14,607 bases of DNA from Candidatus Iainarchaeum sp. (GTDB lineage Archaea > Iainarchaeota > Iainarchaeia > Iainarchaeales > GCA-2688035). Of the stretch, positions 1,838 to 14,185 are shown one piece after another. The notes under the pieces were generated by a model. It saw only the letters and a program-made list of their open reading frames with translations, had not been told where the DNA came from and searched no databases. The DNA lies in contig JAQTNI010000034.1 in assembly GCA_028713935.1 (NCBI GenBank), forward strand, positions 1 to 14,607. The letters are read 5' to 3'. Position 1 is the first letter of the stretch. Each line of letters opens with the position of its first letter. Position numbers and translations under genes: made by a program.

Positions 1838-2581
1838 TTATATTTTAAGGATTGCCCAAGTAGGATTTCCCTTATGCCCAAATTTGAATCCAAACGTTTC
1901 ATAATACCTCTGAAGCTTTTGTATATCCCCTGTGGATTTAACTGCCCTTGCTATTCGTATTTCGTGGATTCCTTCTTTTCTTGCAATTTGAATTGCCTCA
2001 TTTAATACTATCCTAAAAAAGTTCAGGCCTGTTCTTGTGGCTTGTACAGGCACAAAGTTTGTTTGTTGTGGTGCATTAAAATTAAGCGGTCTTTCTTCGG
2101 CTTCTATGTCAGCCATTGTCATTCTAACATGCCTAAAATCACTTATTTTTTCAGGCAGTTTTGCCCCAAACTCAACTGCATTCGCCTCTTCTATATCCAC
2201 TATTCTTCCTAGTTCGCTGATATGTGCCCAAAAAACACTTGGCATTCCTGCCCTGTCAAGGCTTACTATTTGAACCATATAATTATTTGCATGCACAGGA
2301 AATTTTAAAACTCCAAATCGTTTGCAGTTTATTCTATAAAATTTTGTTGTAATGTTACTGTACTCTGTTTTTGCCCAGCTCTCTTTTTTCCATTCCCTGT
2401 TTTTTCTAAAGTGGGAATAATCATCATAAATTTCCTCTGCCCTTTTCCTAAATGTTTTTTCTTCTTCTAGTGCCAGTTGCGTACGTTGCAACCTTGGCAT
2501 TGCTCTTCTTTTTGGGTTGGCTCTTTGCAGTTCCTTATACGTCTGCTCCCTTTCAGTAGCTTTCCTGGGTGGTTTTTGCAT
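1838..2581 (-). CDS. Hypothetical protein with basic N-terminus and GNAT-like (acyl-CoA N-acyltransferase fold) C-terminal region
   Basis: ATG preceded by GAGGGGGAT SD. C-terminal pattern VQATRTGLNFFRIVLNEAIQIARKEGIHEIRIA...LQRYYETFGFKF resembles GNAT motif A/B (RxxGxx ... YexxGF). The fold assignment is by eye only. Confidence 0.45.
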   Translation of the reverse strand: MQKPPRKATEREQTYKELQRANPKRRAMPRLQRTQLALEEEKTFRKRAEEIYDDYSHFRKNREWKKESWAKTEYSNITTKFYRINCKRFGVLKFPVHANNYMVQIVSLDRAGMPSVFWAHISELGRIVDIEEANAVEFGAKLPEKISDFRHVRMTMADIEAEERPLNFNAPQQTNFVPVQATRTGLNFFRIVLNEAIQIARKEGIHEIRIARAVKSTGDIQKLQRYYETFGFKFGHKGNPTWAILKI

Positions 2582-2654: not shown

Positions 2655-3059
2655 TTACTCCACAACTTTGAATTTGTATCCATAAGCAATTGCCCCTTCC
2701 GGGTCAATATCGCTTATTTTTCTGAATTTTTTTGTTACTCTGGCCCCTGTCTTGATTTTTTCTTTTTTTGAATCCACTATCTGCGCTAATATTTTTGCCT
2801 TGTTTTCCATTTCAATTATTGCGAGAAAATAAGGAGTTTCATTTTCAAATCCAAAGGGCGCTACAGACACTTCTGTCCAGGAAACAATTTTTCCAGTGAA
2901 AGGAGTGTCTTTTTCCACTAATTTTCCTTTTCTCCTGCAGTTCGGGCAAATGCTTCTTTGAGGAAAAAAGCTTGTTTTGCAGTTTTCACAATAATTTCCT
3001 TTCAAGTAATACCTTTCAGGGTATTTTCTCCATTGCAATGGCAATGCATTGTGCACCAT
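2655..3059 (-). CDS. DUF35 Zn-ribbon/OB-fold protein, scaffold subunit of the archaeal thiolase/HMG-CoA synthase complex
   Basis: 134 aa. Zn ribbon CENC...CPNC followed by an OB-fold-like C-terminus. Perfect SD AAGGTGAT 5 nt before the ATG. Same strand as the thiolase and HMG-CoA synthase genes. Confidence 0.85.
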   Translation of the reverse strand: MVHNALPLQWRKYPERYYLKGNYCENCKTSFFPQRSICPNCRRKGKLVEKDTPFTGKIVSWTEVSVAPFGFENETPYFLAIIEMENKAKILAQIVDSKKEKIKTGARVTKKFRKISDIDPEGAIAYGYKFKVVE

Positions 3060-3071
3060 TCAAATCACCTT

Positions 3072-4343
3072 TTAGTTTTTTATAGAATATGCAAATTTGT
3101 TTCCTGTTTTTTCTCTTGAAATTAATCCTTTTTTAAGGAGGCTTGTTAAAATTTCTCTTATGTGCCTTTGGTTTCTTTTGCAAAAGTTTGAAATGTTCTC
3201 TGCGTTCAGTTCAATATTTTTCAGGCGTAATTCTTTAAGTTTTTGAAGATAGTGTATTGTTGCTTCATTTCTTGGATAAAATTCTAAGCCTTCAACATAT
3301 CTGTCCAGCACTTGCTTGAGCTTTTCTTGTTTTCTTTGCAAGCCAAAACCAATTTTTTCATAAAATTTTTGCTGGTTTTCTTTGCCAGTTATTCTTATTT
3401 CCCAGTTAATTGTTATTTCTTCAGCATTCTTGGCGTTTTTCTTGTAATTGCAAATTTTTGATTTTATTTCAAATTCTTCAAGAATTTTTTTGATATCAAT
3501 CAATATTTGGGGTTCTTGCCTTGTTTGCTCTTTCGGATAGGTTATTGGCGCTGTGAAGCTGACGCAGCGGCTATTGTGATGGTTGAAAACAGTTCCGTCA
3601 TCATCGTACAAGCGTTGCAGCAAAGCAATTTTGATTTTTTTATCCGTAGAACCCAAAAATATTTTCGGGATTCCTTGATATGGCTTGTAATTTTTGTTTC
3701 CATCTTCCAGCCCAATTGTTTTCAAAATAACGCCAATTATTTTTGGAAAAATCACGCAGGGAGCCCCACTTAATGAATGATGCCTTGCAAAATTAACTTC
3801 TCCAAAACAAGATTGCACTGCTTTTGTAAAACTTTCAATTTGCTCTTTTTCCCTGTTGAAATACCAAATTCTGCACTTGTTTTTTTCAATTCCCCCATCT
3901 CCCAAGACTGCGCCAACAACAAGCGCAAATTCGGGAGTTATTCTAAATGGCAGTTTTGGATTTTTTATGCTTTCTTTTGATTTCATTGTTTTTAATTCAA
4001 TTGTGTTTTTCTGAATCTGTTTTTCACTGATTTTCAAAATTCTTGCAATTTTTAACACTAAAGGCAAGGGCAATCCGCTTCTTTCAACGCGGTATCTCCT
4101 TGTGCTTTCGCCTCTCTTTAAACCCAAGGCTTTTGATATTTTTCCAAAAGAGCCATATTTCTTTTTCAATTCAAAAAAAATTTTTTCTCTGAATTCTGGC
4201 TTTAATTTTATTCTAACCTGCTCTTTGGGCAAATCAAACAAAGATATTTCTGCCATTTTTGAATCCCCAAAAATATTATTTTTTGTTATTTTAATTGCTT
4301 TTGAGACTCTGCGTTTCCACTGTTTTTCATCCAACAAGTTCAT
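3072..4343 (-). CDS. Free-standing double-motif LAGLIDADG homing endonuclease with N-terminal HTH and C-terminal winged-helix regions
   Basis: Two LAGLIDADG motifs about 100 aa apart: LVVGAVLGDGG (3891-3923) and LLQRLYDDDGT (3591-3626), both keeping the metal-binding acidic residue. N-terminal HTH-like FGKISKALGLKRGESTRRY. C-terminal wHTH-like HIREILTSLLKKGLISREKTGNKFAY. Own ATG 9 nt after the thiolase stop and own TAA 12 nt before the DUF35 ATG. Confidence 0.85.
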   Translation of the reverse strand: MNLLDEKQWKRRVSKAIKITKNNIFGDSKMAEISLFDLPKEQVRIKLKPEFREKIFFELKKKYGSFGKISKALGLKRGESTRRYRVERSGLPLPLVLKIARILKISEKQIQKNTIELKTMKSKESIKNPKLPFRITPEFALVVGAVLGDGGIEKNKCRIWYFNREKEQIESFTKAVQSCFGEVNFARHHSLSGAPCVIFPKIIGVILKTIGLEDGNKNYKPYQGIPKIFLGSTDKKIKIALLQRLYDDDGTVFNHHNSRCVSFTAPITYPKEQTRQEPQILIDIKKILEEFEIKSKICNYKKNAKNAEEITINWEIRITGKENQQKFYEKIGFGLQRKQEKLKQVLDRYVEGLEFYPRNEATIHYLQKLKELRLKNIELNAENISNFCKRNQRHIREILTSLLKKGLISREKTGNKFAYSIKN

Positions 4344-4352
4344 AATTTTTAC

Positions 4353-5513
4353 CTATGTTTTTTTCATTATGTGAATAACCGCAGTTGCGCCTGAGCCGCC
4401 AACATTGTGGGCCATTCCAATTTTTGCATTTTTTACTTGCCGTTTTCCTGCTGTTCCGTTTAGCTGTTCAAAGATTTCAATTGCCTGTTTTACACCTGTA
4501 GCGCCAACAGGATGCCCGCATTTTAACCCGCCTGAAGGGTTAACTGAAATTTCTGAATTCAAGGAAGTTTTTCCTTTTTCAACTGCTTTTCCGCCTTCCC
4601 CCTTTTTGAAAAAACCAAGGTCTTCTATTGCCAAAATGTTTGCTATTGAAAAGCAATCATGCAATTCAACTAAATCAATGTCTTTTGGTTCCAACTTGGT
4701 TTTTTCATAAGCCTCTTTAACAGCAATTTTTGTTGCCGCCATTTCTGTCAAAGATTTTCTTCCAGTAAGGGCAAGTGAATCAGATGCCTGTGTTGAAGCA
4801 ATTATTTCCACTGCATTTTCCAGCCCCATTTTTTTTGCTTTTTCTGTTTCACACAAAATCAATGTTGCGGCTCCGTCTGTTATTGGTGAACAATCAAGCA
4901 GTTTTAAGGGGCTTGCCACATAGCCTGATTGCATTACGTCTTCCACTGTTATTTCTCTTTGAAACTGGGAATGAGGATTATTAACCCCGTTTTTATGTGC
5001 CTGCACTGAACACATTGCCATCTGCTCTTCTGTTGTGCCGAATTCTTCCATATGCCTTCTTGCCATTAATGCATAAAGCGAGGGAAATGTTGCGCCATGG
5101 AACAATTCTGTTTCCTGGTCTCCTGCTCCGCCAAGCGCAAAGCTTGCAGCTTCAGTTGAAACCTCTGTCATTTTTTCAATTCCGCCAACAGCAACAATGT
5201 CATATGTTCCTGAAGAAATCGCGAGTATTCCGCTTCTAAGTGCAACTCCGCCTGAAGCGCAGGCAGCCTCTACTCTTGTTGAAGGAATCGGATTCAACCC
5301 CAACTGGTCTGCAATCAAAGCCCCAATATGTTCCTGCCCAATGAGCCTTCCAGAAGCCATGCAGCCTCCGTAAATTGCCTCTATTGTTTTTCCCTCTATT
5401 TTTGCGCTTTCAATTGCCTTTACGCCTGCTTCCGCTATCAGTTCGCGAAAACTTTTATCCCAGTGTTCACCAAATTTTGTTAATCCGGTTCCTATTATTG
5501 ATACGCTTCTCAT
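4353..5513 (-). CDS. Acetyl-CoA C-acetyltransferase (archaeal acetoacetyl-CoA thiolase)
   Basis: 386 aa. Active-site Cys context RVEAACASGG, C-terminal CGHPVGATG and NVGGSGAT motifs. SD AGGTGGGG before the ATG. Confidence 0.93.
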   Translation of the reverse strand: MRSVSIIGTGLTKFGEHWDKSFRELIAEAGVKAIESAKIEGKTIEAIYGGCMASGRLIGQEHIGALIADQLGLNPIPSTRVEAACASGGVALRSGILAISSGTYDIVAVGGIEKMTEVSTEAASFALGGAGDQETELFHGATFPSLYALMARRHMEEFGTTEEQMAMCSVQAHKNGVNNPHSQFQREITVEDVMQSGYVASPLKLLDCSPITDGAATLILCETEKAKKMGLENAVEIIASTQASDSLALTGRKSLTEMAATKIAVKEAYEKTKLEPKDIDLVELHDCFSIANILAIEDLGFFKKGEGGKAVEKGKTSLNSEISVNPSGGLKCGHPVGATGVKQAIEIFEQLNGTAGKRQVKNAKIGMAHNVGGSGATAVIHIMKKT

Positions 5514-5522
5514 TTCCCCACC

Positions 5523-6566
5523 TTACAATTCCTTTATTTTTTTCCTGTGCCTTGCATATTCCGCATAATCAACGTATTCTTTTTCTTTTATCATTTCAAG
5601 CACCGGCACTTTTGCCCTTTTCTTTTCAATGTTTTTTGTTGCAGTAATTGAAAAAGCATCACTCCCTGACCCTGACCCATAGCTTGCGACAAGGATTTTT
5701 TCTCCCGGCTTTGCAATGTCAAGCACGCTGCAGAGCCCTATCATGCTGCTTCCCGAATAAGTGTTTCCAATCATTGGGGTTAACAATCCCTGAATTATTT
5801 TTTTTTCATCAATTCCAAAGTTTTTTGCAATCTGCTTTGGAAATTTTCCGTTTGGCTGGTGGAAAACAGCGTAATCAAAATCATTCGGATTCATTTTTAT
5901 TTTTGCAAGCAATCCTTTCACTGCGCCAGTAATATGCTTGAAATAAGCAGGCTCTCCAGTAAACCTGCCAGCATGCTGTGGAAACTCCGCGTGCTGCCTT
6001 CTCCAGAAATCAGGAGTGTCTGTTGTGAAAGAATAAGTGTCATTTATTTCCGCGATTACTTCGTCTTCTTTTCCGCCTATTATCAATGCCCCTGCTCCGC
6101 TTCCAGCAGTGAATTCAAGGGCATCATTCGGCCTTCCCTGTGCAGTATCAGTCCCAATTGCCATTCCATATTCAATCATTCCGCTTTTTACCAGGCCCAT
6201 GCACATCTGCACTCCAGCTGTCCCTGCCTTGCATGCAAACTGCAAATCAGCAGCCATTAATTCCGGAGAAGCCTGTATTGCGTCTCCCACAATTGCCGCT
6301 GTCGGCTTTACCGCATAAGGATGGCTTTCACTGCCAACATAAATAGCGCCTATTTTTTCAGGCAAAATTTTTGCTGTTTCCAATGATTTTCTTGCAGCTT
6401 CAACTGCAAGTGTGCAGGCATCTTCATCAGCAGCAGCCAGTGCCTTTTCCTTTACGCCTATTCCCGCGGAAATTTTTTTCCCGTCTTTTTTCCAGACCCT
6501 TGCAATTTCCTCAACAGTAATTCTTCTCAGGGGAACCTGCACTCCATAACCGACAATTCCAGCCAT
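5523..6566 (-). CDS. Hydroxymethylglutaryl-CoA synthase (archaeal type)
   Basis: 347 aa. Catalytic Cys context LQFACKAGTAG, HQPNGKFP, and NTYSGSS near the C-terminus. Adjacent to the thiolase with a 9-nt gap. Confidence 0.93.
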   Translation of the reverse strand: MAGIVGYGVQVPLRRITVEEIARVWKKDGKKISAGIGVKEKALAAADEDACTLAVEAARKSLETAKILPEKIGAIYVGSESHPYAVKPTAAIVGDAIQASPELMAADLQFACKAGTAGVQMCMGLVKSGMIEYGMAIGTDTAQGRPNDALEFTAGSGAGALIIGGKEDEVIAEINDTYSFTTDTPDFWRRQHAEFPQHAGRFTGEPAYFKHITGAVKGLLAKIKMNPNDFDYAVFHQPNGKFPKQIAKNFGIDEKKIIQGLLTPMIGNTYSGSSMIGLCSVLDIAKPGEKILVASYGSGSGSDAFSITATKNIEKKRAKVPVLEMIKEKEYVDYAEYARHRKKIKEL

Positions 6567-6568
6567 TA

Positions 6569-7135
6569 TTATCCTCTCCGCTGATTTTTTTTAATAATTA
6601 ACTTTGCTGTTCTCTCACGAGCCCTGTTAAATGTGTCCAATTTTTTGCTTCCAATAATGCTTGCCAAAGCGCTATTGTTAATCGCTTGTATAACAGGCAA
6701 CATGGCCCTAGAAATTTCTATTTCACTATTTGGATCCAGTGTTTCAAAATGAGTTATTTCCCTTTCCAAGGCAACCTTTAACCTTTGCCCTTTATCGCGT
6801 ACTGCAGTTGCAACAACATTCGGCAGATCATTAGCTGTTGTTTCTGTTACAATTGGGACATACTCTGCCAGAATCCTAAACAGTCCTTTTGCACTTTTTG
6901 TTGGAATCTTCCAAAAATGTGCTGCGTGCTCAATTAAAATAGAATTTGCCACTAACTGTCTGGCTTTTTGTTGTTCTTGTTCAGGAAGTTTGCGTGTCAA
7001 TCTATCAATTAAATGCAATTGCGATTCAAGAACTAAGTTAGGGCCTAGTTCAGGAGTGCCACTATGCCGAGCTGTTATTTGTCTTAATCTACTTGATAAT
7101 GCCCCTTTTGGCTTTTCTCTTTTAGGTTCAAGCAT
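6569..7135 (-). CDS. Hypothetical alpha-helical protein (188 aa), probable paralogue of 12543-13085
   Basis: The track ORF extends to 7171. I prefer the ATG at 7135 because GGAGG sits 9 nt upstream and ATGCTTGA (7128-7135) overlaps the reductase stop. TAA ends 2 nt before the HMG-CoA synthase ATG. No recognisable catalytic or binding motif. Confidence 0.7.
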   Translation of the reverse strand: MLEPKREKPKGALSSRLRQITARHSGTPELGPNLVLESQLHLIDRLTRKLPEQEQQKARQLVANSILIEHAAHFWKIPTKSAKGLFRILAEYVPIVTETTANDLPNVVATAVRDKGQRLKVALEREITHFETLDPNSEIEISRAMLPVIQAINNSALASIIGSKKLDTFNRARERTAKLIIKKNQRRG

Positions 7136-8423
7136 TTTGTTTTGCCTCCAGTATTTCTTTTGCCCTGTCAACCTTAATATTCTTTTCTGAAATCATTTTT
7201 TCAGCTACTTCGTCAATTTGTTTTCCTTTTGCGCCAGCAAGCACTGCAATGTTTTTTGCATGCAGCTTCATATGCCCGCGCTGCACTCCTTCTGTTGCCA
7301 GAACCCTCATTGCAGCAATGTTGTTTGCCAATCCAACACAAGCCATTATTTCAGCCAACTCCCCTGCACTTTTAACCCCAAGGATTTTCACTGCAATTTT
7401 TGCAATGGGATGTGATTTTGTTGCTCCTCCCACAAGGCCGACTGCAAGGGGCAATTCAATTTCTCCAACAAGATTTCCTTCTTTGTCCTTATAATATTTT
7501 GTCAATGGCTTGTATTTTCCCTTATTTTTCCAGCATGCAAAAGTATGCGCCCCTGCTTCAATTGCTCTCCAGTCCTGGCCAGTTGCAATTGCCACTGCAT
7601 CTATTCCGTTCATTATTCCCTTGTTGTGTGTGCAGGCGCGAAAAACATCTGCTTCCGCAAAGGCATATGCATTAAGGATTGCTTCAACAATTTCTTCTCC
7701 TTTCAAAGAGCTTTCCCTGAAACTTTCTTCCAGGGCTTTTTTTGAAAAAACGGCTTTTGCCTTTACTGTCCTGTAAACAGCCAGATTTGAAATTATTCTC
7801 AACAATACTTTTCCGCTGGTTATTTCCTCTATTTTTGGGGTTATTGCCTCGCACATTGTGTTGATTGCGTTTGCCCCCATTGCGTCCCTTACATCGACAA
7901 GCAATTCAACAATAAGCATTTTTCCTTTTATTGTTTTCAAAACCCTTGCTTCCAATTTTTTTGCCCCGCCCCCAAATTTTACTAGGGTTTGGTCCATTGA
8001 ATTTGCCTTTTCAAGCAATTCTTTTTTTGCCTTCAAAATTTTTTTTCTTGCCTCTTCAGGCTTTTTTATTCCAGTAACCTGAATCTGCCCAATCATCAAT
8101 GGTTCAGATGCCTTTGCTTCAAAGCCTTCTGAAGCCCTTGTAATCTGCGCTGCCTTGCTTGCAGCCGCAACAACGCTCGGCTCTTCCAATGCCATTGGCA
8201 CCAGATAATCTTTTTTGTTTATTCTGAAGTTTGTCGCTATTCCCAATGGAAGTTGCTGCACTGCAACAACATTTTCAATCATCCTGTTTGCCTGTTCAAA
8301 ATCAAGCGCTGCAAATTTTTTCAGCTGCAAGGTTTCTTCTTCGCTTAATTGTGCAAATTCCTTTACAATCGCCAAGCGTTCTTCCAAATTTTTCTTATAA
8401 AACTCTGAAATGTTTGATTCCAT
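7128..8423 (-). CDS. hmgA: HMG-CoA reductase, class II (soluble, bacterial/Thermoplasma/Archaeoglobus type)
   Basis: Class II signatures LPLGIATNFRINKKDYLVPMALEEPSVVAAASKAA, DAMGANAIN, THNKGIMNGIDA, ATEGVQRGHMKLHA. No membrane domain. The track start at 8432 is TTG; ATG at 8423 (MESNISEFYKK) is preferred. Confidence 0.92.
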   Translation of the reverse strand: MESNISEFYKKNLEERLAIVKEFAQLSEEETLQLKKFAALDFEQANRMIENVVAVQQLPLGIATNFRINKKDYLVPMALEEPSVVAAASKAAQITRASEGFEAKASEPLMIGQIQVTGIKKPEEARKKILKAKKELLEKANSMDQTLVKFGGGAKKLEARVLKTIKGKMLIVELLVDVRDAMGANAINTMCEAITPKIEEITSGKVLLRIISNLAVYRTVKAKAVFSKKALEESFRESSLKGEEIVEAILNAYAFAEADVFRACTHNKGIMNGIDAVAIATGQDWRAIEAGAHTFACWKNKGKYKPLTKYYKDKEGNLVGEIELPLAVGLVGGATKSHPIAKIAVKILGVKSAGELAEIMACVGLANNIAAMRVLATEGVQRGHMKLHAKNIAVLAGAKGKQIDEVAEKMISEKNIKVDRAKEILEAKQNA

Positions 8424-8428
8424 AAGTG

Positions 8429-9778
8429 TCAAGCCCCCAGCAATACATCGTGCCTGTTCAGGCCTGTTTCTTCGGTTTTGCTGTTTCTTTGTTTTTTTTC
8501 CTTCAAAAATTGCTGTATTTCCTTTACTGCGTTTTTTGCGGACTGCACTGCATGCACAATTGTTTTCTGCGAGTTTATCGCATCCCCTGCTAAAAAAACT
8601 CCGTGCAGTTCAGTGCTGCAGATTCCCTCTTTGAGGGGCTTTCCTTGCAGCAGGCTTGCCTTGAAAACTGTTTCGTCAAATTCCTGCCCAATTGCAAGAA
8701 CAGCAATTTCAGCTTCCATTTCAATTTCTTCCCCTCTAGAAACAAATTCCTCTTTTTTGATTTCCAGTTTCTGGAATTTTATTTTTTCAAGTTTTTTGGT
8801 TCCAATAAATTCAATTGGGGAAAGCAGGTATTCAAATTTTATGCCCTCTTCAATTGCCTCGTTATACTCTTTTTTCCTGCAGGGCATGAATTCAAGGTTT
8901 TTCCTGTAAGCAATCGTAACATCAAACCCCATTCTCAATGCAGTCCTTGCGCAGTCCATTGCAGTGTCCCCTCCCCCTACAACAACGCATTTTTTTCCCC
9001 TGCCCTGCCTGCCATTTCCATGGCAATATTTTTCCAGGAAGGAATTCCAATAAAAAATTCCTTCAAGCTCTTTTCCTTTTGCATCAAGCTGTTTTGCATG
9101 GCTCTCGCCCGTTGCAATTAACACGGCATCAAATTCTGAAAGTATTTCGCTGAGTGTTTTTTTCCCGCCTATCCCAAAGTTTTTTTCCATTTCAATGCCC
9201 TGATTTTGCATCCATTTTACCTGTTCTTCAAAAACCTTTTTCGGAATCCTGTAGCCGGGAATTGCATTAATTGCAAGGCCTCCAAAATTGCCTTGGGCTT
9301 CAAAAATTTTTCCTTTTATCCCGATTTTTCTCAGTTCAATTGAAGCCGCAATTCCCGCAGGGCCGGAACCGATTATTGCAATGCTGTTTTTTGAAGTGCT
9401 GTCATTAATGTTTTTCATTTCGGAATTTTCAACTGCAAACCTTTCAAGTGCCCTGATTGAAATTGCCTCTCCTTTTTTTGCAAGAACACAGCCTCCTTCG
9501 CATTGCTGCTCTGCATTGCAGGCCCTGCAAGTAAGGCATGGCAAAGAGTCCTGTTCAAGGATTGTTTGCAGCGCGCCCTGAAAATTTTCTTCACAGATTT
9601 TTTTTATAAATTCCTTGCAATTCACGCCTGCAGGGCAGCCAGTTACACAGCCGGGATTTGCGCATTGCAGGCATCTTTGCGCTTCCTTCAAGGCTTTTTC
9701 CCTTGAAAAGCACTGTTCTATTTCATTAAAATTGCCAATTCTTTCTTCAACCCGCAATTTTTCCATTTTTTCCTGCAT
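8429..9778 (-). CDS. GltD/SudA/NfnB-family NAD(P)H-dependent Fe-S flavoprotein oxidoreductase (glutamate synthase small-subunit-like)
   Basis: N-terminal Cys clusters CLQCANPGCVTGC and CLTCRACNAEQQCEGGC. Two dinucleotide folds, IAIIGSGPAGIAAS and CVVVGGGDTAMDCARTA. TGA stop lies 5 nt before the reductase ATG. The track start at 9784 is GTG. ATG at 9778 is preferred but the start is uncertain because the AGGTG SD is only 3 nt away. Confidence 0.85.
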   Translation of the reverse strand: MQEKMEKLRVEERIGNFNEIEQCFSREKALKEAQRCLQCANPGCVTGCPAGVNCKEFIKKICEENFQGALQTILEQDSLPCLTCRACNAEQQCEGGCVLAKKGEAISIRALERFAVENSEMKNINDSTSKNSIAIIGSGPAGIAASIELRKIGIKGKIFEAQGNFGGLAINAIPGYRIPKKVFEEQVKWMQNQGIEMEKNFGIGGKKTLSEILSEFDAVLIATGESHAKQLDAKGKELEGIFYWNSFLEKYCHGNGRQGRGKKCVVVGGGDTAMDCARTALRMGFDVTIAYRKNLEFMPCRKKEYNEAIEEGIKFEYLLSPIEFIGTKKLEKIKFQKLEIKKEEFVSRGEEIEMEAEIAVLAIGQEFDETVFKASLLQGKPLKEGICSTELHGVFLAGDAINSQKTIVHAVQSAKNAVKEIQQFLKEKKQRNSKTEETGLNRHDVLLGA

Positions 9779-9850
9779 AAACACCTAGTCTTTGCATTTT
9801 GCCCTCTATGGCAAAAATCCCATATATTTGAACAATTTTTTTTACAAAGG
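9779..9850 (-). promoter_or_regulatory. Candidate promoter and leader of the mevalonate operon
   Basis: On the minus strand, CAAATATATG (rc of 9821-9830) is a TATA-like box about 47 nt upstream of the ATG, preceded by an A-run. A 7-bp hairpin TTTTGCC-ctctat-GGCAAAA (9797-9816) lies in the presumed leader. Confidence 0.3.
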
Positions 9851-10443: not shown

Positions 10444-10607
10444 AAGTCCACCCGCTTAGCAAATTAAATCTGATTAATTTTATTATTTATATTTGGGCAT
10501 TAAGGGCTTTAAAACTTGCGTTTTCAAGAAGCGGAATTTTCCTGCAAAGCCTTAAATACCTCCTTGATAATACTCTTTAGGAAAAGGAAAAAGAATTTTT
10601 CCCAGGT
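10444..10607. promoter_or_regulatory. Divergent promoter region between the 117-aa gene and the wHTH gene
   Basis: A/T block 10461-10496 (aaattaaatctgattaattttattatttatattt) contains TATA-like sequences for either strand. First copy of the AGCGGAATTT direct repeat at 10530-10539. Confidence 0.4.
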
Positions 10608-11093
10608 GTGTTTTTGCAGAAAGCGGAATTTCCAGAATCCGGCCTTGTAAGAAAGACTTTCATTGTGAGACAGATGGATTTGCCTCCAAGCGTAAAGCTC
10701 ACAAAGCGTTCTCTCCTGAGATGGTTTGCGCTTTCCTTCGGTTTAATCAGCAGTGGTGAATCAAGGGACACTGTTCTGCTTGTCCTGGATGCCTTGTTTT
10801 TCCTTCTTTTGTCTTCAAAATCAAGCCCTTCTACAACAGATGTCCAGGCCTGCATAAAGGAAAAATTCCAGAAAAAAATTTCCGAAAAGCTCATCCGCTA
10901 TCATCTTAACAGGCTTATTGAATCAGGCCTGCTTGTGCGCAGAAAAGCAAGGTATTTCATCAACAACAACCCTTATGCAGAGCCGAACAATCTCAAAGAG
11001 TCTTTTGTGCACTGGTTTAGGCAGCCTGCAAACACTGCAATGTCTGACATTGAAACAGTCCTTGGCTCTCTTTCGGAAGCCTACAAAAAATAA
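10608..11093 (+). CDS. Winged-helix DNA-binding protein (putative transcription regulator)
   Basis: wHTH pattern ISEKLIRYHLNRLIESGLLVRRKARYFI. Start uncertain: GTG 10608, TTG 10614 (AGGTG 5 nt upstream) or ATG 10674. TAA at 11091-11093. Confidence 0.6.
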   Translation: MFLQKAEFPESGLVRKTFIVRQMDLPPSVKLTKRSLLRWFALSFGLISSGESRDTVLLVLDALFFLLLSSKSSPSTTDVQACIKEKFQKKISEKLIRYHLNRLIESGLLVRRKARYFINNNPYAEPNNLKESFVHWFRQPANTAMSDIETVLGSLSEAYKK

Positions 11094-11099
11094 GCCTTT

Positions 11100-11289
11100 C
11101 GAAGCGCTCATTGAGCCTTTTTGCTCCTGCAAAAAGCTTCGGGAAAATGCTTCGCAGTATTCGCTTTCGAAAGCCTCGTTGCAAAGCTTCGCTTTGCGAC
11201 GCACAATGCAAACAAAGTTTGCGTTGCATCGGAAAGCATTGCTTTCCAATGTCGCAAACCGCAAGGTTTGCAATGTGGGAAAATACTCG
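11100..11289. repeat. Array of six or more phased short hairpins (element copy B, inverted relative to copy A)
   Basis: CTTTTTGC-tcct-GCAAAAAG (11117-11136). GCTTTCGAAAGC (11163-11174). CGTTGCAAAGC-ttc-GCTTTGCGACG (11177-11201). CAATGCAAAC-aaa-GTTTGCGTTG (11204-11226). GGAAAGC-att-GCTTTCC (11231-11247). GCAAACC-gcaa-GGTTTGC (11254-11271), then GTGGGAAAA. The exact 16-mer AAAGCCTCGTTGCAAA (11170-11185) is the reverse complement of 10054-10069. Confidence 0.8.
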
Positions 11290-11292
11290 CGG

Positions 11293-11559
11293 TTAATCAA
11301 TTGCATTTGGCCAGTGCTGGATGCCTGTTGCAATGTCCTTGTAGCACAAATCCCTGTTCTGCAAATTTGAGATTTTTTCGCAGAGCTCTGTGCTTTTGCT
11401 TATTGTCGCTGTTTCCCAGTAACATTGCTCTTTTGTTTCCTGTGAAGAAATTTTTTCGCAGATTTCCGGTTTTGCATAATCTGGCGAGCCAAGGCAGCCC
11501 ATTGTAAGGAGAAGGCCTATTGCTGCAATTATTGCAATTGAAAAAATTTTTTTCTTCAT
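11293..11559 (-). CDS. Small secreted Cys-repeat protein, probable lipoprotein
   Basis: The internal ATG at 11559 gives MKKKIFSIAIIAAIGLLLTMGC, a signal peptide with a lipobox-like LTMGC. Two internal repeats: EICEKISSQETKEQCYWE and ELCEKISNLQNRDLCYKD. The track start at 11637 would leave only 9 nt before the divergent dtdA. Confidence 0.6.
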   Translation of the reverse strand: MKKKIFSIAIIAAIGLLLTMGCLGSPDYAKPEICEKISSQETKEQCYWETATISKSTELCEKISNLQNRDLCYKDIATGIQHWPNAID

Positions 11560-11646
11560 TTTAATAATGCCTTTTTTGTTTTGGTTCAATTCCAGAATTT
11601 TTGGTTCAAACATGAGTTTTAATCCATTTTTATCCATAATTTTTGC

Positions 11647-12542: not shown

Positions 12543-13085
12543 TTAACCTTGTGCCCTACTTTCAATTCTACGTGCAATGTCAAATGCCTTTTTAGTGTCG
12601 TTAGTAAATTTTTCAAAACTATCTTTTCCCAACACTTGTTCCAGTGCTGCCAGATTCCGCGTGATTGCCATTCTGAGAATCATTGTATCTACTACTGTCA
12701 TTGCCTTGTCCTCAGTGTGTTTTAATTTCCGTAAGTCTTCTCTGGCGAAGGCAACAGCGGCCTCGCTTATTTCGTTCGCACACATAGCGCTTCCCAAGGA
12801 AATGTTTACATCCCTTATCAGGTTTTTGAGGATTTCCTTCTTTGTTTTACAGGTAACAGGCCCTTTGTAAGCTGCGAATATTCTCACCTGATTTGCCATC
12901 AACTTTCTTGCCCTATTATAATCTGGTTTTGCTAACCCTATTTTTGAAAGCAAATATAAACGAATTTCCAGAAGCGTTTGGATTTGGCGCATTTGCCTGG
13001 AGGGCTTGTATCTCTCAAGAACGGACTGTATTCTGGCGCGAAATGCCCTCTTATAAGCAGGATTTGCTTTTTTTTCTTTTGGCAT
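12543..13085 (-). CDS. Hypothetical alpha-helical protein (180 aa), probable paralogue of 6569-7135
   Basis: ATG start 29 nt downstream of the idsA stop. Colinear by-eye similarity to the 188-aa protein: ARKLMAN vs ARQLVAN at the same position, CANEISEAAVAFAREDLRKLK vs TANDLPNVVATAVRDKGQRLK, and NLAALEQVLGKDSFEKF vs NSALASIIGSKKLDTF. Confidence 0.7.
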   Translation of the reverse strand: MPKEKKANPAYKRAFRARIQSVLERYKPSRQMRQIQTLLEIRLYLLSKIGLAKPDYNRARKLMANQVRIFAAYKGPVTCKTKKEILKNLIRDVNISLGSAMCANEISEAAVAFAREDLRKLKHTEDKAMTVVDTMILRMAITRNLAALEQVLGKDSFEKFTNDTKKAFDIARRIESRAQG

Positions 13086-13114: not shown

Positions 13115-14185
13115 TCAGATTTTTCTTTCAATTAAGTAATCCGCAAATTCTTTTAGTGTTTTTTTTGCATTGCTTTCTTTCAGGACAGGGCTTAGTTTTT
13201 TCCATGCGTTTTTTACAAGGGTTTTTGCTTTTTCCTTTGCATACTCAATTGAGCCATTTTTTTTGATTATTCCAATTGCCTCGTTAATCACTGCCTGTTC
13301 TGTTGGATGCGAATTTAAAATTTCAATCAACCTATTTCCATCGGCCTGGCCTGAATTTTTCAATGCGTGCAGCACCATTATTGTCCTTTTTCCCTCGTGA
13401 ATGTCTTCCCCGATTCCTTTTCCTTTCTGGAATTCCTCGCCAACAAGGTTCAGGACATCGTCCTGTATCTGGAAAGCAACGCCGATTGTTTCGCCGAATT
13501 TTCCCAGTGCCTTTTCCTGTTTTTCATTTGCATTTCCAAGTATTGCCCCGAGCTTTGCGGAGAATCTTGTTAAAACCCCTGTTTTATAAACGCACATCTG
13601 CAGGTATTCTTCTTCGGAAATTTCAGTTTTGTTGCCCCTGTGCCACCATATATCTATTGCTTGGCCCATGCTTACCCTTATCATTTCCTGTGCATACAAA
13701 TCATAAATTTTACTGATTTGTTTTTTCTTCAGTTTATAAGGGTTTTTGTAGAGCAAAGTCAATGGAATAAAGTACATTGCAGCCCCATCATTAATGGCAA
13801 CATCAAGGCCATAAAGCAGGTGAGTGCATTTTTTTCCGCGCCTTGTTTCAGAGCAGTCCTCTGCGTCATCCTCAATCAAGGTTCCATTATGGATAATTTC
13901 TACTATCGGCGCTATTTTTAGCGCCAATTCTTTTTTTCCGCCCACAGCCTCGCATGCAAGCATTGCCAATGCAGGCCTCAGCCTTTTTCCGCCCCTATCA
14001 AGCAATTCCCAGATTGGCTCTGCAGCGCTTTTTGTCATTGTTTCCTCATCATATGCAAAATCAGCCTTGTCAAGCGCGTATTCGAGCCATTTTTTTGTTA
14101 TTTTCCTCGGAAAAACTTTTTCAATTTCCCTGTCAATCAGGGGCTGGATTTTTTTCAAGTATTCTTCTATTCCCGCCAAAATCAC
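13115..14185 (-). CDS. idsA: (E)-polyprenyl diphosphate synthase (IdsA/GGPP synthase family; product chain length uncertain)
   Basis: GGKRLRP, first Asp-rich motif DDAED (13856-13870), second motif FQIQDDVLNL, then GEDIHEGKRT. The track start at 14185 is GTG. An SD-like AAGGTG overlaps it, so the exact start is uncertain. Confidence 0.88.
   Translation of the reverse strand: MILAGIEEYLKKIQPLIDREIEKVFPRKITKKWLEYALDKADFAYDEETMTKSAAEPIWELLDRGGKRLRPALAMLACEAVGGKKELALKIAPIVEIIHNGTLIEDDAEDCSETRRGKKCTHLLYGLDVAINDGAAMYFIPLTLLYKNPYKLKKKQISKIYDLYAQEMIRVSMGQAIDIWWHRGNKTEISEEEYLQMCVYKTGVLTRFSAKLGAILGNANEKQEKALGKFGETIGVAFQIQDDVLNLVGEEFQKGKGIGEDIHEGKRTIMVLHALKNSGQADGNRLIEILNSHPTEQAVINEAIGIIKKNGSIEYAKEKAKTLVKNAWKKLSPVLKESNAKKTLKEFADYLIERKI

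Follow-up and report, generated by a model that had tools for sequence, protein, structure and literature searches.

In the archaeal mevalonate route, the DUF35/OB-fold protein is reportedly the scaffold of the complex formed by thiolase and 3-hydroxy-3-methylglutaryl-coenzyme A (HMG-CoA) synthase (HMGCS), and we know of no other regulatory or accessory protein specific to this pathway. The heteromeric prenyl diphosphate synthases have HexA/HepS-type non-catalytic small subunits, which are small, all-helical, motif-less and encoded beside the prenyl synthase, and in Bacillus the small-subunit gene lies beside a gene for a UbiE-like methyltransferase. Here we analyzed a gene for a 188-amino-acid protein located between the genes for HMG-CoA reductase (HMGR) and HMGCS in a Candidatus Iainarchaeum sp. 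(assembly GCA_028713935.1). The stretch of DNA, hereafter the window, comprises 14,607 nucleotides (nt), or 14.6 kb, and is the entire contig JAQTNI010000034.1 of an Iainarchaeia (DPANN) metagenome-assembled genome (MAG), with nearly all of its genes on the minus strand. Our tentative reading, to which we give somewhat less than an even chance, is that this gene, the target, encodes a dispensable, relocatable and non-enzymatic accessory of isoprenoid clusters. The protein would be a compact helical bundle from an orphan family, added to the HMGR-HMGCS spacer in this lineage.

The family resembles the DUF35/OB-fold scaffold in being made of small, probably non-catalytic proteins encoded inside the upper mevalonate operon, but DUF35 is universal with the operon, combines a zinc ribbon with an OB fold and is well conserved, whereas the family is all-helical, sporadic and fast evolving. 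The likeness to the HexA/HepS-type subunits extends to gene order, as the family gene precedes a UbiE-like methyltransferase gene in two of the loci fetched for comparison (numbered L; here L065 and L068). The differences are that sequence and Foldseek searches linked the family to no PDB chain (Foldseek E ≥ 0.39, TM score ≤ 0.31), and that a paralog in the window is alone in lying beside a prenyl synthase, most members being found by DUF35 or mevalonate kinase (MVK). With selfish junction fillers, such as LAGLIDADG genes and ParE/RelE toxin-antitoxin systems, the family shares its occurrence in the mevalonate junctions of Iainarchaeia, its patchiness and its absence from close relatives; unlike them it lacks any nuclease or toxin signature and any partner gene, matches nothing in PHROGs or PADLOC, and prefers isoprenoid loci, a preference that selfish fillers are not known to have.

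The target, its paralog and their immediate neighbors are as follows:

6569 to 7135, minus strand: target coding sequence, 188 amino acids, annotated as hypothetical protein PHD95_05565; assessed from its open reading frame (ORF), junctions, family membership and AlphaFold2 (AF2) model
7128 to 7135, minus strand: ATGCTTGA, the 8-nt overlap of the target ATG with the HMGR stop, read from the sequence
7145 to 7149, minus strand: GGAGG, Shine-Dalgarno-like, 9 nt upstream of the target ATG and inside the HMGR codons L-E-A-K
6570 to 6578, minus strand: GGAGAGGAT, likely HMGCS ribosome-binding site, made by the last codons and stop of the target
7128 to 8432, minus strand: class II HMGR (PF00368, 1e-110; TIGR00532, 464 bits), upstream neighbor of the target
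5523 to 6566, minus strand: archaeal-type HMGCS (Pfam), downstream neighbor of the target
12543 to 13085, minus strand: distant paralog, 180 amino acids, PHD95_05600, 29 nt downstream of the polyprenyl synthase stop and converging on a D-aminoacyl-tRNA deacylase-like gene
13115 to 14185, minus strand: polyprenyl synthase of the geranylgeranyl diphosphate (GGPP) type (PF00348, 9e-69), upstream neighbor of the paralog

The HMGR gene ends with AAT GCT TGA, its stop occupying 7130-7128, and the target ATG lies at 7135-7133; at the other end, the target TAA (6571-6569) is followed by TA and then by the HMGCS ATG (6566-6564), which leaves a gap of 2 nt. An earlier note on this stretch, made from the letters alone, had described the overlap with the HMGR stop, the GGAGG 9 nt upstream, the 2-nt gap and the presence of GGAGAGGAT in the last codons, and each of these coordinates was confirmed on the minus strand, as was the identity of both neighbors (Pfam, NCBIfam). 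The mechanical ORF reaches back to a TTG at 7171, but aligned family N-termini (MPKxKK...) favor the ATG at 7135. The target is co-directional with HMGR and HMGCS, and its spacing supports translational coupling with both. It would be translated from the polycistronic mevalonate mRNA by means of its own GGAGG and of a start overlapping the HMGR stop, while its tail would supply the HMGCS ribosome-binding site. The second copy that the same note had placed near the prenyl synthase does exist, as a distant paralog with 22% identity to the target (BLASTP E = 3e-6). One family profile recovers both (181 bits for the target and 171 bits for the paralog with 12 sequences), and no meaningful flanking repeats (terminal inverted repeats or target-site duplications) were found around either gene. 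In L003 the slot of the paralog is unoccupied, and only 38 nt separate the prenyl synthase from the deacylase-like gene.

When 1.84 billion representatives were searched exhaustively by HMMER with a profile made of the target and its paralog, only six further proteins were returned (P0003-P0008, P-numbers denoting proteins from this search), all full-length, with 177-191 amino acids and E-values from 5e-7 to 1e-3. Profiles of eight and later 12 sequences revealed further members of this family of helical-bundle proteins in L002, L011, L015 and L018, loci that had been fetched through neighbor genes, and the family profile detected a partial member in L080 among metagenome loci. Word-index searches with the target or paralog as single query found only themselves, and with the eight-sequence alignment added just P0004; no relatives were found, at the available sensitivity, in IMG/VR viral contigs (three members as queries) or in phage and plasmid collections (tblastn). 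The family amounts to about 15 detectable lineages, detectable only in Iainarchaeia-type DPANN archaea, and its members are recognized by a length of 177-210 amino acids, a basic N-terminal MPKxK tail, seven predicted helices, a hydrophobic core pattern and an invariant G162, all of which the target displays.

Pairwise identity within the family is mostly 14-45%. For three genome pairs, the ratio of nonsynonymous to synonymous substitution rates (dN/dS) of the family protein was 0.15-0.42 and its dN exceeded that of HMGCS from these pairs by a factor of 2.6-3.6; between L065 and L068, for instance, the family protein is 41% identical while HMGCS and DUF35 are 81% and 86% identical, respectively. 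These substitution rates show a family evolving roughly three times faster than the neighboring enzymes yet under purifying selection. Full-length family conservation, a dN/dS below 1 and a confident AF2 fold are the reasons for which we regard the target as a real gene. Around 40 other ORFs without assignment, located in junctions or neighboring positions, were tried as very divergent members and rejected (hhalign probability against the family profile ≤ 1.4%), among them the 247-amino-acid gene that follows DUF35 in the window, a 174-amino-acid gene in the HMGR-HMGCS slot of L012, and genes of 188 and 296 amino acids located between UbiD and AcnX.

Among the six proteins found without context bias, four (P0003, P0005, P0006 and P0008) are encoded directly beside mevalonate genes. 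The genes for P0003 and P0006 are located between DUF35 and a UbiE-like methyltransferase followed by MVK, in complete archaeal mevalonate superclusters whose order is GltD-like, HMGR, HMGCS, thiolase, DUF35, family gene, methyltransferase, MVK, UbiX, UbiD, AcnX large and small, and IPK; the P0005 gene is flanked by DUF35 and MVK, and that of P0008 is found directly upstream of MVK. Members found in loci fetched through neighbors occur directly after DUF35 (L011, L015 and L018), which is the commonest position in the family, or directly after MVK (L080). In most clusters, overlaps or spacers shorter than 40 nt separate the family gene from its neighbors. Members occupy no fewer than four different isoprenoid junctions, one of which, after the prenyl synthase, lies outside the mevalonate operon. 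We estimate the chance of such an adjacency at about 1-2% per independent event, taking roughly ten isoprenoid genes among the about 1000 genes of a genome, and the independent events are few, perhaps four or five, since the members after DUF35 may go back to a single old insertion. The family is enriched at isoprenoid loci.

The HMGR-HMGCS slot itself was surveyed in 63 loci from species-representative genomes, fetched via the HMGCS of the window, and in 80 metagenome loci, fetched via its HMGR. A family member occupies only two of about 60 co-directional HMGR-HMGCS junctions, namely those of the window and of L002. Judged by nucleotide identity, the loci branch as ((window, L001), L002), L004, L003. 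In the sister L001, whose HMGCS is 93% identical, HMGR is directly followed by HMGCS after a 12-nt spacer, with no family gene, and L003, L004 and L075 show the same arrangement with spacers of 21-31 nt. Within the ancestral-type spacer of L001, AAGGGGGCAAGAAA serves as HMGCS ribosome-binding site, the role played by GGAGAGGAT in the window. The target is a lineage-specific addition to the HMGR-HMGCS spacer. It is not a core component of the mevalonate operon, its synteny not being conserved, and the earlier description of the gene as an integral member of the operon core must be abandoned in view of the two occupied junctions and the empty slots of the sister and of L003, L004 and L075.

The two occupants of the slot differ from each other far more than their surroundings do. 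The L002 member and the target share 18% identity (BLASTP E = 0.016), against 91% for the flanking HMGCS and, for the flanking genes in general, about 91% in protein and about 85% in nucleotide sequence. The L002 member comes from another branch of the family and is 61% identical to P0007, whose gene is found at a non-mevalonate locus between a 451-amino-acid basic repeat protein and a dCMP deaminase, in the same MAG as L004. At the rate measured for the family, orthologs in genomes so close would be expected to be about 65-75% identical; at 18% the two occupants are not orthologs, and therefore either the slot was filled twice or the cassette was replaced. The C-terminal L-E-A-K/GGAGG codons of HMGR are common to the window and L002 and are not found in L001 (which has L-Q-Q-K), L003 or L004, a pattern compatible either with shared ancestry followed by loss in L001 or with convergence.

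An AF2 model of the target built from the eight-sequence alignment (predicted local distance difference test 83.4, predicted template modeling score 0.75) consists of seven helices and two tiny strands, with a basic N-terminal tail that is disordered; an earlier model from two sequences was poor (predicted local distance difference test 63.5). No match in Pfam or NCBIfam was obtained for any of the 12 members, and none in PHROGs or PADLOC (best E = 0.18). PDB sequences gave at best E = 0.086 with a single sequence and 0.26 with the 12-sequence profile, chance matches such as designed repeats and Swi5. Foldseek found no fold similar to the AF2 model in the PDB (best E = 0.39, TM score ≤ 0.31) or in BFVD (best E = 0.075, TM score 0.15). 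Neither Pfam nor NCBIfam reported a helix-turn-helix or winged-helix-turn-helix domain in the 12 members, and no helix-turn-helix protein appeared among the Foldseek matches in the PDB, all with E ≥ 0.39. We found no description of such a protein in the literature. The family matches no known sequence or fold, and its newness lies in these missing matches, not in a demonstrated mechanism.

Only the start methionine and G162 are invariant in the 12 sequences, and the other conserved columns almost all belong to the hydrophobic core. Members have 0-2 cysteines, most of them having none and none being conserved, and there is no conserved acidic or histidine residue. Semi-conserved polar positions are K/R59, H/N/Q64, S65, K/R83, S142, H/N153 and K/R164, among which 64 and 153 co-vary. 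No catalytic, metal or nucleotide motif could be recognized in the target. A catalytic role is very unlikely because invariant residues are nearly absent and conservation mostly concerns the hydrophobic core; the family is very probably non-catalytic. The portrait given by the earlier note, that of an all-helical protein without catalytic, metal or nucleotide motif and not assignable to any family, agrees with the AF2 model apart from its two tiny strands, with the family alignment and profile libraries, and with the profile, PDB-sequence and Foldseek checks; no profile of a mobile element or toxin-antitoxin protein, a kind of match against which that note had cautioned, was found in Pfam, PHROGs or PADLOC.

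The junctions in which members are found are themselves unusual. In non-DPANN archaea, the spacing of HMGCS, thiolase and DUF35 stays within -10 to +12 nt. Junctions longer than 150 nt were seen between HMGR and HMGCS in 9 of 32 loci, between HMGCS and thiolase in 21 of 56 and between thiolase and DUF35 in 11 of 51, nearly all of them from DPANN archaea, and those of Iainarchaeia are often expanded to 150-2000 nt with unrelated small genes (L005-L021, L042, L043, L055, L056). The fillers include LAGLIDADG genes (the window, L010 and L014), a ParE toxin with a putative antitoxin (L021, 1119-1593, with a similar small gene in L020), small membrane proteins, zinc-ribbon proteins and proteins of 77-123 amino acids with basic C-terminal tails. 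Comparison of these fillers with the family profile detected no relationship. The mevalonate operons of Iainarchaeia are permissive landing sites because their expanded junctions carry unrelated genes.

An accessory of the isoprenoid pathway is the most likely nature of the target because the family recurs in isoprenoid clusters and because this genome keeps two deeply diverged copies beside isoprenoid genes. Members move or are replaced among isoprenoid junctions (between HMGR and HMGCS, after DUF35, before or after MVK, after the polyprenyl synthase) and are occasionally located elsewhere in the genome. Such an accessory would act through binding or regulation to tune how isoprenoid synthesis is expressed or organized, and would be neither a catalyst nor an obligatory subunit; its candidate partners are a protein, the RNA or DNA of the operon, and an intermediate that is phosphorylated or carries CoA, and the family is in this respect a candidate for the control of lipid-precursor synthesis in DPANN archaea with reduced genomes. 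A bolder version, which we hold to be unlikely, sees in the family a non-catalytic regulator or sensor dedicated to archaeal isoprenoid synthesis, the first of its kind: a bundle of novel fold whose semi-conserved polar cluster would bind a phosphorylated or CoA-bearing intermediate and adjust the flux or expression of the host operon; if true, such sensing would explain the retention of deeply diverged copies next to HMGR/HMGCS, DUF35, MVK and the prenyl synthase. Several observations weigh against the accessory reading that we favor. A member is present in only four of the 63 HMGCS-anchored loci and in one of the 80 HMGR-anchored metagenome loci, as a partial ORF, and in operons as permissive as these, presence in a junction is by itself no evidence of a pathway role. 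The members located after DUF35 may share one old insertion, so that the linked cases would not be independent. The surface of the family is barely conserved, at odds with a fixed interface to highly conserved enzymes. The target has an isoelectric point (pI) of 10.3, which is not distinctive because the local proteome is generally basic (9.2 for HMGR and 10.2 for a HAD hydrolase of the same genome). Finally, the P0004 and P0007 lineages are not beside isoprenoid genes, P0004 being encoded between aEF-1beta and an intein-bearing SMC-like gene. The earlier note had made linkage of the homologs to isoprenoid genes a key to its proposal: the neighborhood survey bears this out for the predominant part of the family and not for these two lineages.

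The most serious rival, possible although we rate it clearly below the accessory, is an operon-junction passenger, that is, a fast-evolving ORF in a permissive and highly expressed spacer, weakly selected or kept for a reason foreign to isoprenoids; the mevalonate link would then reflect the use of junctions as landing pads in Iainarchaeia together with one old post-DUF35 insertion inherited vertically. The expanded, nearly exclusively DPANN junctions filled with LAGLIDADG genes, a ParE toxin and small membrane or basic proteins fit this idea, as do the sister genome lacking the gene, the different family branch in the L002 slot, the two lineages outside isoprenoid loci and the unconserved surface. 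L018 adds a trace: its family ORF (8981-9613) continues into '...AEGLIAYCYKFKIVE', which repeats the DUF35 C-terminus, and the upstream DUF35 ends prematurely at '...RAYGYKFK*', so that the duplicated end is, on its sequence, the scar of an insertion into the DUF35 3' end. Against a passenger speak the mevalonate genes adjoining four of the six context-unbiased members, the use of at least four isoprenoid junctions, one of them beside a prenyl synthase outside the mevalonate operon, and a post-DUF35 gene that has been kept in reduced genomes at dN/dS below 1 while diverging to 14-45% identity; nor does the family show a transposase, integrase or nuclease motif, terminal repeats or target-site duplications, or relatives in the phage and plasmid collections searched. 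Even as a passenger the gene would be instructive, since the mevalonate operons of Iainarchaeia, unlike those of other archaea, are porous to homing-endonuclease-like genes, toxins and orphan ORFs, and since members swappable at one junction between close genomes offer a model of the way in which translational coupling can integrate new genes into old operons.

A scaffold or regulatory function of a more specific kind is less probable than either. That the target is a stoichiometric scaffold or subunit of a mevalonate metabolon, bridging HMGR to thiolase/HMGCS/DUF35 and channeling intermediates, or that the paralog similarly binds the prenyl synthase, seems improbable to us: the apparent translational coupling with HMGR and HMGCS, the frequent position directly after DUF35, itself a scaffold gene, and the paralog beside the prenyl synthase point in this direction, but the gene is absent from most genomes with highly similar enzymes, the sister included, its immediate neighbors vary by lineage (HMGR, DUF35, MVK, prenyl synthase, methyltransferase), and two very different members occupy the same slot in near-identical backgrounds. 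The scaffold idea raised in the earlier note is further weakened by the near absence of conserved surface positions in the family, as against 80-90% conservation of the putative partner enzymes. A local nucleic-acid-binding regulator, in which a basic helical protein would act on the operon DNA or mRNA and autoregulate its own cluster, is more doubtful still. All 12 members have a pI of 9.4-10.5, their N-terminal tail (MPKxKK) is basic and disordered, their C-termini are basic as well, they are encoded within the operons to be controlled, and two paralogs sit in two isoprenoid transcription units of one genome; however, Pfam, NCBIfam and a Foldseek search of the PDB, where such folds abound, gave no helix-turn-helix or other DNA- or RNA-binding domain, and high pI as a sign of nucleic-acid binding was down-weighted, the whole local proteome being basic. 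Least of all do we believe in a missing pathway enzyme or in an ORF that is not a gene, both very improbable. Nothing beyond genomic position speaks for them; a missing enzyme is contradicted by the lack of conserved polar or catalytic residues and by the full archaeal set (MVK, AcnX, UbiD/UbiX and IPK) that accompanies family members in L065 and L068, and a non-gene by the full-length conservation, dN/dS and confident fold already cited.

Beyond the target, the paralog and their direct neighbors, the window contains the following genes:

First in minus-strand order, before the polyprenyl synthase: NAD kinase, C-terminal part
After the paralog in gene order, plus strand: D-aminoacyl-tRNA deacylase-like gene, followed by small ORFs without assignment
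8429 to 9784, minus strand: GltD-like Fe-S flavoprotein (dihydropyrimidine-dehydrogenase-domain-II), overlapping the HMGR start
4353 to 5513, minus strand: thiolase (Pfam/NCBIfam)
3072 to 4343, minus strand: free-standing gene of 423 amino acids with LAGLIDADG_3 and a C-terminal winged helix (TrmB-like)
2655 to 3059, minus strand: DUF35/OB-fold protein (Pfam/NCBIfam)
1838 to 2581, minus strand: 247-amino-acid protein without family match, directly after DUF35, where other lineages have the helical family; a HAD hydrolase comes next

The LAGLIDADG gene of the window (3072-4343) is inserted between thiolase and DUF35 with spacers of 9 nt and 12 nt, and L010 has a related gene at this junction. 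In L014, the LAGLIDADG gene is located between HMGCS and thiolase, and its ORF opens with a copy of the thiolase N-terminus (MRSVSIIGE...). The slot between DUF35 and MVK repeatedly contains small helical proteins of 77-123 amino acids with strongly basic C-terminal tails (e.g., ...KRPKKPRRRRV), at the following positions:

L065, 7738 to 7971: basic-tail small helical protein
L080, 9466 to 9837: basic-tail small helical protein
L082, 9086 to 9352: basic-tail small helical protein
L086, 9593 to 9931: basic-tail small helical protein
L088, 9734 to 10087: basic-tail small helical protein

Further along the complete superclusters, a gene of 188 amino acids in L065 (12138-12704) and one of 296 amino acids in L068 (12719-13609) are found between UbiD (anhydromevalonate-phosphate decarboxylase-type) and AcnX; neither matches Pfam, and hhalign indicated no relationship to the family.

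Rfam scanning of the whole window revealed no RNA family, including in 10450-11640, and a tRNA search found none; scans for sigma-70 promoters and intrinsic terminators, two models that are not applicable to archaea, stayed at shuffle level. Between 10450 and 11640, ORFs overlap on both strands with no clear gene, and the guanine-cytosine skew flattens where gene orientation switches. This region contains a possible 161-amino-acid winged-helix protein (10608-11093, plus strand) with a weak HTH_12 match, and a lipoprotein-like ORF of 114 amino acids (11293-11637, minus strand). The GltD-like gene is conserved directly upstream of class II HMGR in many Iainarchaeia clusters (L001, L003-L005, L015, L018, L056, L065, L068, L075 and L113), and the flavoprotein may be a dedicated supply of electrons or NAD(P)H for HMGR.

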